Assembly (NCBI GenBank): GCA_947625115.1
Contig: CANQND010000006.1
Coordinates: 72-64,071 of the forward strand
DNA length: 64,000 nt
DNA from: an uncultured Clostridia bacterium
GTDB taxonomy: Bacteria; Bacillota; Clostridia; Christensenellales; CAG-314
Reading direction: 5' to 3'
Below the pieces are notes generated by a model. The model was given only the letters and a program-made list of their open reading frames with translations. It searched no databases and was not told the origin of the DNA. This document shows positions 5,786-9,044 of this stretch, piece by piece. The position numbers and the translations under genes are program-made. The stretch's first letter is position 1. The number at the start of each line of letters is the position of its first letter.

Positions 5786-7105
5786 TTACAAAATGTCCGC
5801 CAATTTGTCCACGTCGCCCGCGCCCAAAATCAGCAAGGTGTCGTCTGCCCCGCAATTGCCGAATATCCATTGACGGACTGAGGCGAAATCGGGTTGAAAG
5901 CAGGCGTTTAGCCCTCTTTCCGCCGCCGATTGAGCAAGCAGATATGAGTTTACCCCCGCAATGGGTTTTTCTCGCGCAGAATATACGGGCAAATACGCCA
6001 CCGCGTCGGCTTGGCGAAAACACTCGGCAAACTCCGTCCAGAACGCCCGCGTGCGCGAATAAGTGTGCGGTTGAAACACGCACAATACGCGTCCCTTTGT
6101 CATACTCCGCGCCGTCGCTACGGAACAGGCTATTTCCGTCGGGTGATGAGCGTAGTCCAAAACCGTTTTGCCAATCCCGTCTACGATACGTTCGGTCCAA
6201 CGCCGATCTACGCCGTTAAAATCTTTTAGCGCGGAAACTGCCGTTTGCGGCGGAATGTTCAGTAAATCCGCCACCGCAAGCACCGCGAGAGCATTGCGTA
6301 CGTTGTGTTCGCCCGGTACGCTCAACTGCACCTGTTGCGCGCCTTGCGGCGTTGATACGTTAAATTTGCAACAGCCGTCGATCGCGCGTATGTTTTCTGC
6401 CGAAAACGCCTTGTCGAAAAGGATTTTGTTGCGATGAGGAAACAACCCCTTTAATTCGCTCGGCAACACAACATAGCCGCTTTTGCCTACGCTGTTGCAA
6501 AACCGAGCAAAAGCTCTTTTTACGTCGTCAAAATCTTTGTAACAATCGGGGTGATCGAGTTCTGCGTTAAGACAAACGCATACCGTCGGGCGCAAACATA
6601 AAAAGCTGCGATTAAATTCGCAAGCCTCAGCCACCACCACTTTGTTTCCGAAAAAATAGTTGTTGCCGCGGTACACGCCCCCGATAAAAGCCGTATGATC
6701 GACTTTTGCTTCCGTCAACAGTTGGTGCAACATTGCGGTAACCGTGGTTTTGCCGTGGGTGCCGCACACCGCTATGCGCGTTTCAAAGCTGTTGAATATC
6801 CCTCCCAGAACTTCTTCTCTCAACGCCACGGGTATGCCGCAAGACAAAGCGCGTTCGACTTCTGGATTATCCAAGGGAACCGCGCTTGTTCGCACAACAA
6901 GTTCTGCGCCGTCTACGTTATCCGCATTGTGACCTATATGTACCCTTATTCCCAAATTGCGCAATGCGTCTGTTCGTTCCGATTGCACGCGGTCGCTACC
7001 GCTCACTTCGTAACCCAACTTTTGCAGATGTTGCATAAGTCCGCTCATACCGATACCGCCGCACCCCACAAAATGCACGCGGTGCGGAATTTCTTCCAAT
7101 TTCAT
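5786..7105 (-). CDS. murC: UDP-N-acetylmuramate--L-alanine ligase
   Basis: N-terminus VHFVGCGGIGMSGLMQHL, Mur ligase P-loop CGTHGKTTVT, typical length of 439 aa. Confidence 0.95.
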   Translation of the reverse strand: MKLEEIPHRVHFVGCGGIGMSGLMQHLQKLGYEVSGSDRVQSERTDALRNLGIRVHIGHNADNVDGAELVVRTSAVPLDNPEVERALSCGIPVALREEVLGGIFNSFETRIAVCGTHGKTTVTAMLHQLLTEAKVDHTAFIGGVYRGNNYFFGNKVVVAEACEFNRSFLCLRPTVCVCLNAELDHPDCYKDFDDVKRAFARFCNSVGKSGYVVLPSELKGLFPHRNKILFDKAFSAENIRAIDGCCKFNVSTPQGAQQVQLSVPGEHNVRNALAVLAVADLLNIPPQTAVSALKDFNGVDRRWTERIVDGIGKTVLDYAHHPTEIACSVATARSMTKGRVLCVFQPHTYSRTRAFWTEFAECFRQADAVAYLPVYSAREKPIAGVNSYLLAQSAAERGLNACFQPDFASVRQWIFGNCGADDTLLILGAGDVDKLADIL

Positions 7106-7192
7106 ACTGTACTATATGTTTTTGCAGATAATTTTGTGTACCGAATTGGATCGGCGAACAAACGAACTTGCGGGCAGGTATCTAAAAAACGC

Positions 7193-7221
7193 TTGACTAA
7201 TACTTGATAACATCGTATAAT
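7193..7221 (+). promoter_or_regulatory. Sigma-A-type promoter of rpmE
   Basis: TTGACT (7193-7198), 17-nt spacer, TATAAT (7216-7221). Confidence 0.6.
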
Positions 7222-7254
7222 GATAACGCAAAAATTTGAAGAGAGGTGCGAACA

Positions 7255-7461
7255 ATGAAACAAGGTATACATCCGAATTATCATCAAGCGACTGTTGTAT
7301 GTGCTTGCGGCGCAACTTTCCAAACGGGTACAACCAAGGATACGGATATTATCAAGGTTGAAATCTGCAACAAATGCCACCCGTATTTTACGGGAAAGCA
7401 AAAGTTGGTAGACGCCGGCGGAAGAGTAGACAAGTTCAAAAAGAAATACGGTCTGCAATAA
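7255..7461 (+). CDS. rpmE: 50S ribosomal protein L31 (Cys-containing type A)
   Basis: [19 protein letters not shown]...[30 protein letters not shown] at 7255 after GAGAGG (the track start 7246 is a GTG). Confidence 0.95.
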
Positions 7462-7469
7462 TGAGAACA

Positions 7470-7500
7470 AGAGAACGACTTCGGTTGTTCTCTTTTATTT
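7470..7500 (+). terminator. Intrinsic terminator of rpmE (repeat copy 1)
   Basis: Stem agagaacgac, loop ttcg, stem gttgttctct, followed by ttttattt. Confidence 0.8.
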
Positions 7501-7535
7501 TGCTTTTTGCTACTCTGCCGTCGCTTGCTGTGGGT

Positions 7536-7715
7536 CATCAAGCGACTGTTGTATGTACTTGCGGCGCAACTTTCCAAACGGGTACAACCAAGGATACGGA
7601 TATTATCAAGGTTGAAATCTGCAACAAATGCCACCCGTACTTTACGGGAAAGCAAAAGTTGGTAGACGCGGGCGGAAGAGTGGACAAGTTCAAAAAGAAA
7701 TACGGTCTGCAATAA
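7536..7715 (+). pseudogene. 5'-truncated rpmE copy (codons 10-68 plus stop), repeat unit 2
   Basis: L31 reading frame is intact from H10 to TAA. It lacks the MKQGIHPNY start. Only an in-frame GTG (7530) without a ribosome-binding site precedes it. Confidence 0.6.
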
Positions 7716-7723
7716 TGAGAACA

Positions 7724-7754
7724 AGAGAACGACTTCGGTTGTTCTCTTTTATTT
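7724..7754 (+). terminator. Intrinsic terminator (repeat copy 2)
   Basis: Same hairpin as 7470-7500, 254 nt downstream, followed by ttttatttt. Confidence 0.75.
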
Positions 7755-7789
7755 TACTCACTTCACCTCTGCCGTCGCTTGCTGTGGGT

Positions 7790-7969
7790 CATCAAGCGAC
7801 TGTTGTATGTGCTTGCGGCGCAACTTTCCAAACGGGTACAACCAAGGATACGGATATCATCAAGGTTGAAATCTGCAACAAATGCCACCCGTACTTTACG
7901 GGAAAGCAAAAGTTGGTAGACGCCGGCGGAAGAGTGGACAAGTTCAAGAAAAAATACGGTCTGCAATAG
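7790..7969 (+). pseudogene. 5'-truncated rpmE copy (codons 10-68 plus stop), repeat unit 3
   Basis: L31 frame is intact from H10 to TAG. It lacks the first 9 codons. An in-frame GTG at 7784 has no ribosome-binding site. Confidence 0.6.
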
Positions 7970-7977
7970 TAAAAGCA

Positions 7978-8009
7978 AGAGGACGACTTCGGTTGTTCTC
8001 TTTTATTTT
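7978..8009 (+). terminator. Intrinsic terminator (repeat copy 3)
   Basis: Stem agaggacgac, loop ttcg, stem gttgttctct, followed by ttttatttt. Confidence 0.75.
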
Positions 8010-8080
8010 GCTTTTGCTACTCTGCCGTCGCTTGCTGTGGGTCATCAAGCGACTGTTGTATGTGCTTGCGGCGCAAACGG

Positions 8081-8108
8081 TTGCAAAATTTTGCAAAAGA
8101 AGTATAAT
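8081..8108 (+). promoter_or_regulatory. Sigma-A-type promoter of the ABC transporter operon
   Basis: TTGCAA (8081-8086), 16-nt spacer, TATAAT (8103-8108), immediately after the last partial repeat. Confidence 0.5.
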
Positions 8109-8138
8109 AGAATCAAATACTGACGTGCGGAGGCGTAT

Positions 8139-9044
8139 ATGTCGGAAACAGTAATTGTCGCCAACGGTCTTACAAAGGTTTACAACGGAGTAAAGGTTGT
8201 GGACGGCGCAAGTTTCAATGTGGATAGCGGCGCGATCGTCGGCTTGGTGGGCAAAAACGGCGCGGGAAAAACAACGCTGTTGAGAATGTTGACGGGGTTG
8301 GTGAAACCCACGGAGGGCGACTTTGCCCTACTGCCCAACCGACAACGCGAAAGTTCGGACGTTGCCGCCATTGTGGAAAAGCCGTCGCTGTACAACAATC
8401 TGTCGGCGATGGACAACCTGAAAATTCAATGCGATTTGCTCGGAATAAAAGCCGACGGTCAATATCTTGCACAGACATTGTGCGTTGTGGGCTTGGACCC
8501 AAACGCGACAAAAAAGGTAAAAAACTATTCGTTGGGTATGCGCCAACGCTTGGCTATGGCAACGTGTCTTGTGGGCAAACCGCGCTTGCTGTTGTTGGAC
8601 GAACCGACTAACGGACTCGACCCCGAGGGTATACAGCAGATACGGGAAATTTTGTTGAAGCTGAACAGCGAAAACGGCACCACGATAATGATTTCCAGCC
8701 ATATTCTGTCCGAATTGAGCAAATTGGCAACGGAATTTATCATTATGGACAAGGGTAAAATTCTGAAACGCGTTGCCGCCTCGGAATTGGAGAGTTTTTC
8801 TTGCAAGAAGTATCGCATAACGGTAGACAAAACGGGCGTTGCAAAAGAAGTTCTTTGCTCTCTCGGTAAAGCGGAAATTGTCGGCATAACGCAGGTAGAA
8901 TTGACGGCGGAAGTTTCGGCGGCGGAAATTTTGCAAAAGCTCGGCGCGGCGGAAGTTTCGGTCAGAGCCATTGTTCAAGCGGGCGATTCCTTAGAAGAAT
9001 TTTACTTGCAGACGATAGAAGAAAAAAGCGGAGGCGAACAATGA
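8139..9044 (+). CDS. ABC transporter ATP-binding protein
   Basis: Walker [10 protein letters not shown], signature YSLGMRQRL, Walker [18 protein letters not shown] ribosome-binding site. Confidence 0.9.

Follow-up and report, generated by a model that had tools for sequence, protein, structure and literature searches.

Why should most of a ribosomal-protein gene be repeated, without its beginning, directly behind the gene itself? The question is raised by rpmE, which encodes ribosomal protein L31, in a stretch of 64,000 nucleotides (the window, to which all positions refer) from the metagenome-assembled genome of an uncultured Clostridia bacterium of the gut (G000; 83 contigs, 1.57 Mb). From codon 10 onwards, rpmE forms the start of an array of 3.1 head-to-tail units of 254 bp (positions 7282-8076). 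The explanation that we favour by a modest measure is that a 34-bp direct repeat remained from an old fold-back (inverted-duplication) event and that it expands and contracts by unequal recombination. The extra copies are not maintained genes, and we lean, with some reserve, towards regarding the array as a structurally unstable, non-coding stretch of DNA whose copy number varies.

Tandem Repeats Finder reports a single array at this locus (7281-8076; period 254, 3.1 copies, 94% matches, score 1452), and the first-pass annotation of this DNA was right to describe a real tandem array carrying part of rpmE and its terminator. Each full unit consists of rpmE codons 10-68, a stop codon, the terminator and a spacer ending in GCTGTGGGT, and starts at the CAT of codon 10 (7282, 7536 and 7790). 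A scan for terminators placed them, each with an 11-bp stem and a T-run, at 7469-7494, 7723-7748 and 7977-8002. A 34-bp repeat, 'a', corresponding to codons 10-21, lies on both sides of a 220-bp segment. The copy of 'a' within the working gene would be the left partner, and the terminal stub the right partner, for unequal recombination. The units differ from one another at 11-17 positions, concentrated in a 15-nt block of the spacer, in agreement with the earlier remark that the spacers differ most. This block directly follows the T-run of the terminator, and 5-8 of its 15 positions differ between units or strains, compared with 1-5% of positions elsewhere in the unit. Four versions of it occur among the three units and two other strains, some of which resemble slipped CTCTGCC repeats.

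The array is not peculiar to one genome. A DNA search among relatives turned up the shared arrangement in several congeners. A pattern search covered all 47 species representatives of the genus and counted a species as positive if its rpmE locus contained the repeat core two or more times. The same architecture was found downstream of rpmE in 18 of them (G000, G001, G005, G006, G008, G009, G011, G012, G019, G021, G022, G248, G323, G325, G333, G338, G339 and G340), and relics in three more (G015, G023 and G332). Array periods range from 242 to 388 bp between species because terminators and spacers are species-specific, and the copies always start at codon 10. Outside the genus, each of 147 genomes from 94 other genera of the order gave a single L31 match and none carried an array; the rpmE nucleotide motif is itself genus-specific, being absent from 150 other genera of the order. 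Further examples come from unrelated public metagenome assemblies, human-gut assemblies included (L107, L109/L111, L117). A search of JGI/ENA metagenome contigs with the exact 36-mer junction returned no match, and the 20-mer core of 'a' was found there in 18 contigs, three of them with partial copies. Recurrence in congeners with species-specific terminators and spacers confirms the earlier opinion that the array is not an assembly stutter. As the junctions recur with diverged spacers and decayed copies, the architecture must be real.

In a MurC tree of 41 species, array-bearing species occur in all three major clades, interleaved with single-copy species, and the clades resemble one another in their loops (TGGAT, TGGGT, TGAAT) and in the layout of the arms. 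A single old origin, after which arrays were inherited, expanded and repeatedly lost, is the reading that this favours; repeated formation at a deterministic hotspot is a possible alternative.

Copy number also varies within species. Public assemblies were searched with the exact L31 protein; the copy states that follow come from low-coverage short-read assemblies, not from reads, and are provisional. Two contigs have flanks approximately 98% identical to those of the window. One (L057) carries a single gene and the 34-bp stub, that is, 1.13 copies; the other (L058) carries 2.13 copies, its two units being 100% identical. With 3.13 copies in the window, the same species is thus represented by 1.13, 2.13 and 3.13 copies in different assemblies. 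A second species, with a MurC of 421 aa, has 1.x copies in L053 and L056 and 2.x in L051. Head-to-tail units on a direct repeat, and a copy number that is polymorphic among close relatives as far as assemblies tell, are both features of tandem duplication. Unequal recombination between the 34-bp repeats, as proposed in the first-pass annotation, fits these data: the precursor that it postulated, a gene followed by a stub, is the state of L057, and L058 is the 2.13-copy allele.

The sequence differences between units have a simple source. Unit 3 shares with the working gene of L058 the variants T69C, T105C, A147G, A159G and G162A, the TAG stop codon and the changes in the terminator. Seven coding sites vary among the units of the window, six synonymously and one non-synonymously, because the unit differences are alleles on which selection had already acted in working genes; they can be accounted for without any selection on the extra copies. 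Consequently, the differences between units, which had been taken as an argument against assembly effects, do not suffice as such, unit 3 being the working-gene allele of another strain. It is possible, although we think it doubtful, that the array is real while the number and order of its units in the window mix co-occurring strains with one or two units each. The origin of the sequence from an 83-contig metagenome-assembled genome speaks for such a chimera, as do the approximately 90 bp around 'a' that the units share identically and that short k-mers cannot resolve, the presence of the L058 allele in unit 3 beside a different allele in units 1 and 2, the breaking of contigs at the array in several congeners, and the 1.1 or 2.1 copies seen in low-coverage assemblies. 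A chimera of this kind would be compatible with the explanation favoured here.

The extra copies do not behave as maintained genes because in seven species they are frameshifted (G019, G340), truncated at codon 54 (G009, G248) or mosaic (G021, G339, G338). Neither a Shine-Dalgarno sequence nor a promoter was found before them by inspection of the window sequence and a promoter scan, and a strong terminator lies 30-40 nt upstream. They do not form the complete, conserved open reading frame with start codon and ribosome-binding site that defines an L31 paralogue. Intact copies are 94-100% identical to the working gene of their own genome; units share their terminators within a species, whereas terminators of different species are completely different. 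Such a pattern is expected of pseudo-copies that were made or homogenised recently and that decay once exchange stops. The side effects of the array would be extra terminators in series and no truncated protein. In two distant species, the partial copy ends at the same point, after codon 54 (...KLVDA; L006 in G009 and L036 in G248), and the mosaic copies of G021 and G339 also switch at codons 52-55, which suggests a second breakpoint-prone spot around GACGCCGGCGG.

The first-pass annotation missed that the start of the repeat also stands, in inverted form, before each copy, and the hairpin formed by the two points to a fold-back origin. This diverged inverted copy, a', lies before all partial copies in all species; it covers codons 10-13 and in many species extends over codons 10-21. 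In the window, a' is GTCGCTTGCTG (7520-7530), which apart from one mismatch is the reverse complement of CATCAAGCGAC (7536-7546) and is separated from it by a 5-nt loop; a' is only 11-13 nt long here, the outer arm having been lost. The left arm follows codons 10-11 of rpmE: where these are CAT CAA it reads GCTTGCTG, with CAC CAA GCTTGGTG, with CAC GAA CGCTTCG or CGCATCGTG, and with CAC TCC GTCGTGTGG. Over 23 junctions, 79.6% of the cells are paired and four pairs have changed on both sides, values reached in none of 500 shuffles; slid controls gave 17-53% pairing. A second arm, which is complementary to codons 17-20, directly follows the T-run of the terminator in nine loci (G005, G009, G006, G323, G325, G340, G012, L107 and L117). 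Whether this outer arm reads GCGCCGCAA, GCGCCACAA or GCACCACAA depends on which synonymous codons the species itself has at positions 18 and 19. RNAalifold recovered both nested helices with compensatory pairs in each, its covariation term being unfavourable (+0.41). The element is therefore an imperfect palindrome of approximately 80 nt, composed of a' of codons 10-21, a loop and the direct copy. An inverted copy between two direct copies, the order expected of an inverted triplication, was found at every junction, and the arm of codons 17-20 in at least nine loci.

As a structure, the junction hairpin alone is not unusually stable (z of -1.3 to -1.4), and the fold of 7455-7575, which includes terminator 1 and the junction, has a z of -3.6. 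A search of 6900-8400 with Rfam 15, ribosomal-protein leaders included, identified no family, the best matches being 12-20 bits against gathering scores of 37-115. Two other candidates were rejected. An RNA hairpin of rpmE codons 3-6 with codons 14-18 ('H1'), considered as the hotspot, folds no better than shuffles (7228-7320, z +0.62), and local alignments of the spacer as an inverted copy of codons 54-64 score within shuffles in every species. The 34-bp repeat ends in an 11-nt palindrome, TTGCG(G/C)CGCAA (TTGCGGCGCAA, codons 17-21; 7305-7315, 7559-7569, 7813-7823 and 8066-8076). It was considered as an inversion or recombinase site and occurs 14 times in the genome, compared with approximately 0.7 expected from base composition; ten of these occurrences lie outside the rpmE locus and not at arrays.

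From the direct-repeat geometry, the inverted remnant, the copy-number states, the homogenisation within genomes and the decay of copies, we infer the following course of events. It would have begun in an ancestor of the genus, when replication folded back or switched template at the terminator hairpin of rpmE and the 3' part of the gene was triplicated in direct-inverted-direct order; one of the triplication junctions could plausibly lie at this hairpin. Palindromic junctions of inverted triplications are known to be remodelled later by deletion of one arm (PMC4689423). A deletion of this type may have trimmed the inverted middle copy to a' (codons 10-21, or 10-13 in this genome) just behind the terminator, followed by a direct copy from codon 10, which would account for the two observed positions of 'a', within rpmE and downstream of its terminator. 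Unequal crossing-over or slipped mispairing between the copies of 'a' could then add or remove 254-bp units, giving 1.1, 2.1 or 3.1 copies, and the same exchanges, together with gene conversion, may keep the sequence of the extra copies very close to that of the working gene up to the point of decay. Two processes would preserve the complementarity of the hairpin: rpmE repeatedly overwrites 'a', and intramolecular template switching at the quasipalindrome adjusts a' to 'a'. Such switching is documented in Escherichia coli, where imperfect inverted repeats become more perfect (PMC7202029).

Several observations weigh against this scenario. One C/T mismatch of the hairpin is conserved in many species, and efficient quasipalindrome correction should remove it. 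In G023 the relic is a perfect 15-bp palindrome followed by a T-run, and the hairpin also survives in G332, the rest of the copy being lost. No native short inverted repeat that would explain the site of the switch was found at codon 10. A search for a remnant of the tail-to-tail junction yielded nothing significant, the apparent resemblance between the spacer and reverse-complemented codons 54-59 being at noise level. It is also surprising that a functionless element should persist in a genus whose MurC proteins are approximately 50% identical and whose genomes are streamlined to 1.5 Mb; this fits selection better. It is because of this deep persistence, the conserved mismatch, the hairpin relics that outlast the copies and the invariant blocks of rpmE described below that we give a fold-back origin with later unequal recombination only a slight preference.

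The alternative that survives best is that the a'/a hairpin, together with the copied stretch of rpmE 5' coding sequence within it, is a selected cis-acting RNA or DNA element and that the arrays are a by-product or dosage variant of it. We consider this unlikely, though deserving of serious attention. Compensatory changes occur in both helices, the element is genus-wide and deep-branching and absent from 94 other genera, and the relics in G023 and G332 outlive the rest of the copy. Codons 1-6 and 12-17 of rpmE (7255-7272 and 7288-7305) are 18-nt blocks that are nucleotide-invariant in 36 species. They include four-fold degenerate Gly, Ala, Thr and Val codons, while four-fold degenerate codons elsewhere in the gene vary and other invariant residues use two to four codons. 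In the long form of the hairpin, the invariant block of codons 12-17 lies between the two covarying helices. Candidate roles include a decoy or second operator for a factor binding codons 12-17, an antisense action of a' on rpmE mRNA upon read-through, and an auxiliary terminator or processing site. The element, however, is absent from more than half of the species, near-complete genomes included (G326, G328 and G330), and the outer helix is missing in the genome studied here. The lack of an Rfam match, the ordinary stability of the hairpin and the unfavourable covariation term also count against selection, and the compensatory changes, of which only about four or five are independent, could be produced by templated correction. 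Somewhat less likely again is the bolder form of this idea, in which the ~80-nt hairpin would be a genus-specific, selected regulatory element with a second copy of the codon 12-17 block placed between two helices evolving together with the gene. Whatever binds this block in rpmE mRNA (L31 itself, for example) would find a decoy or second operator there, or the element would serve as a built-in antisense, pairing with the 5' coding region of rpmE when the terminator is read through; the array, with its variable copy number, would tune L31 expression.

A site-specific origin appears improbable. The units would in this case be miniature cassettes or att-site scars of a tyrosine recombinase with rpmE codons 10-21 as its core, and tandem integration or accretion would build the array, in the way described for integrative elements at tRNA and ribosomal-protein genes. 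The idea is attractive in that rpmE is a target of integrative mobilizable elements in streptococci, such as IME_Sga2069_rpmE, which integrate at its 3' end (PMC5704250). The unit also has one fixed start position, and the junction resembles two 13-bp inverted arms around a short spacer. The contig of the window (C6), however, has no integrase, the six PF00589 matches of the genome being on C20, C28, C30, C31, C36 and C38, and none of more than 20 loci has cargo between its repeats. In all loci, the units consist of rpmE 3' sequence, terminator and a spacer of approximately 40-150 nt, and no recombinase gene adjoins. At the native rpmE site the palindrome is represented by its right half alone, and the left arm tracks the rpmE of its own species, which is unexpected for a transferable attP. 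The segment of identity would, moreover, begin at codon 10 and not at the 3' end. Integron cassettes are also poor models: there is no integrase nearby, and the 13-bp arms with a 5-nt loop do not have the R''-L''/L'-R' architecture.

Comparable partial-gene arrays at tRNA genes of the same genome, one of them beside an integrase gene (C28), could also be taken to speak for a recombinase. They include tRNA 5' halves, however, which integrases do not duplicate. In total, the G000 genome contains 25 tandem repeats whose period is 60 bp or more, and several of these duplicate one end of a tRNA gene together with adjoining intergenic DNA: the 3' end of tRNA-Thr with its terminator, and 5' parts of tRNA-Arg and tRNA-Ser with upstream DNA (C16:7350-7652, C16:28432-29067, C28:1798-2194 and C2:77996-78297). 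The array on C28 adjoins the tyrosine-recombinase gene C28:1105-1665. Arrays made of part of a gene and its flank may be a general habit of this genome. The left-arm motif CGTCGCTT was considered as a recombinase site common to rpmE and the tRNA-Thr array of C16 and was rejected, as the shared 8-mer occurs at chance frequency genome-wide. A hairpin-rich non-coding element of approximately 271 bp, GGGGTGGGCGGTCGGGGACC..., forms tandem pairs at C15:25394-25903 and C14:22361-22897, and next to the C14 pair lies another, partial copy; the element looks like a structured repeat.

Translation of the extra copies as an N-terminally truncated L31, from an in-frame GTG two codons before His10, is very improbable. 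GTG-NNN-CAY is in frame in most junctions, intact copies keep the frame with one non-synonymous and six synonymous sites in the window, and one copy has been called as the gene of a 76-aa PF01197 protein; a look-up of this product returned its own contig alone. Against translation stand the missing Shine-Dalgarno sequence and the strong terminator just upstream, a GTG that is out of frame in G338 and G248, the decay of copies in seven species, and the synonymous bias, which is explained by unit 3 being the working-gene allele of another strain. That the whole array is spurious, a product of metagenome assembly, is scarcely credible either: an assembler cannot invent the sequence of the spacer-to-codon-10 junction, which must exist in reads, the junction recurs in 18 species and unrelated assemblies with species-specific spacers, decayed copies and covarying hairpins, and arrays lie inside long contigs, such as that of G005 at 245 kb of a 288-kb contig.

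The features of the locus are collected in Table 1.

Table 1. Features of the rpmE locus and its neighbours (positions in the window)
Feature	Position	Strand	Basis or remark
murC (UDP-N-acetylmuramate-L-alanine ligase), divergent left neighbour	5786..7105	-	439-aa open reading frame; Pfam Mur_ligase domains on homologous genes
Predicted rpmE promoter, TTGACT-17-TATAAT	7193..7221	+	Consensus scan, 11/12 matches; -35 and -10 conserved in congeners
rpmE, full-length L31, 68 aa, Cys-x-Cys ... Cys-x-x-Cys zinc type	7255..7461	+	Translation; PF01197 on identical protein
34-bp repeat 'a' in working gene (codons 10-21)	7282..7315	+	Identical at 7790-7823 and 8043-8076; one mismatch at 7536-7569
Unit 1: 3' part of working gene, terminator, spacer	7282..7535	+	Tandem Repeats Finder, unit alignment
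Unit 2: headless rpmE copy, codons 10-68, single A17T change, terminator, spacer	7536..7789	+	
Unit 3: headless rpmE copy, codons 10-68, TAG stop, terminator, spacer; 253 bp	7790..8042	+	
Terminal 34-bp stub (codons 10-21)	8043..8076	+	Same stub beside single gene in L057
Intrinsic terminator 1, 11-bp stem, UUCG loop, T-run	7469..7504; copies 7723-7758, 7977-8011	+	
Hypervariable 15-nt spacer block	7502..7516; also 7756-7770, 8010-8023	+	
Junction hairpin: a' GTCGCTTGCTG, loop TGGGT, next-copy start CATCAAGCGAC	7520..7546; repeated 7774-7800, 8027-8053	+	Inverted-repeat search, folds, covariation
Predicted promoter of ABC-transporter operon, TTGCAA-16-TATAAT	8081..8108 (-35 at 8081-8086)	+	Conserved beside ABC gene in both cassette orientations
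ABC-transporter ATPase, right neighbour	8139..9044	+	301-aa open reading frame; PF00005 on homologues

The surroundings of the array give little reason to see it as an insulator. The first-pass annotation let the array end exactly at the -35 element of the ABC-transporter promoter, which is nearly right, the stub stopping 4 nt short of the predicted element. A role as an insulator for the three terminators in series that it described between rpmE and the transporter operon is not supported: the same species has 1.1-copy alleles, many congeners have a single copy, and in other species the array abuts murC and not the ABC operon.

The orientation of the rpmE cassette differs between sister species. 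The order is murC(-) rpmE(+) ABC(+) in G000 and G019, and ABC(-) rpmE(+) murC(+) in their closest relatives, G015 and G022. The flip is limited to a cassette of approximately 0.4-1.1 kb (7106-8138 in the window; L009/L052 for G015, L005 for G022, L007 and L039 for G019), keeps all three promoters and has occurred at least twice. No inverted repeat flanking the flipped cassette was found, and a search for rpmE-derived remnants upstream of the rpmE promoter gave none above shuffles except a borderline 11-mer in G009. The predicted -10 box of murC, TATAGT, ends 5 nt before the ATG (7106-7140, minus strand), and CATA(T/C/A)AGTACA(G/A)T-ATG is conserved upstream of murC in all congeners examined. 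With a conserved -10 box so near the start codon, the murC mRNA may therefore be leaderless or nearly so.

How does this locus compare with known rearrangements? With bacterial tandem duplications between short direct repeats it shares head-to-tail units on a 34-bp repeat, a strain-variable unit number and homogenised copies. Unlike these, its unit is a tiny 254 bp, consists of a 5'-truncated ribosomal-protein gene and a terminator, and is kept or regenerated genus-wide, which is not the case for transient laboratory amplifications. The tandem inversion duplication that Kugelberg et al. described in Salmonella in 2010 is reportedly a type of inverted triplication. The origin-dependent inverted-repeat amplification of yeast is another inverted triplication (PMC4689423). 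The direct-inverted-direct order, the hairpin-prone junctions and the deletion of one arm leaving a short inverted piece are common to these events and the rpmE array; here, however, just a 13-34-nt inverted remnant is left, a tail-to-tail junction is not demonstrated, and the event is ancient and natural. Mutation by template switching at quasipalindromes (PMC7202029) likewise involves an imperfect inverted repeat whose arms stay complementary, mismatches being turned into matches without selection. At rpmE, the process is deduced from covariation only, and one mismatch is stably conserved.

Integrative mobilizable elements (IME_Sga2069_rpmE and att-flanked accretion; PMC5704250) resemble the array in their target gene, in direct repeats of part of a gene and in the possibility of tandem arrays. 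The rpmE array differs from them in the absence of integrase and cargo, in the start at codon 10 and in a left arm that evolves with the host gene. Zinc-independent type B L31 paralogues (rpmE2/ykgM) are also extra L31-like coding sequences in a genome, but the copies described here begin only at codon 10 and have neither a start signal nor a ribosome-binding site; they retain the Cys motifs, differ little from rpmE, and are found in decay in several species. The first-pass annotation knew of no precedent for such arrays. For rpmE this stands, as our literature search found no paper on partial rpmE arrays; the kind of rearrangement, in contrast, has precedents: amplification in tandem between short repeats, junctions of inverted duplications and correction at quasipalindromes are all established. 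What is new is that these are combined at a ribosomal-protein gene, that the copies always begin at codon 10, that the arrangement recurs genus-wide with copy-number polymorphism, and that a hairpin tracks the gene.

There is also a practical side. Gene callers annotate the headless copies as L31 genes, and the array breaks contigs in several metagenome-assembled genomes of the genus. Two features deserve to be flagged, namely the two nucleotide-invariant 5' blocks of rpmE and a hairpin that has stayed complementary to the gene over deep divergence; should the hairpin be functional, it would represent a new kind of ribosomal-protein control element. If instead a fold-back origin with later unequal recombination is correct, the rpmE locus would be a rare natural record, spread over dozens of species and written at an essential ribosomal gene, of a pathway known mainly from laboratory selections. 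The order of that pathway would be fold-back duplication, palindrome trimming and, finally, amplification by unequal exchange.

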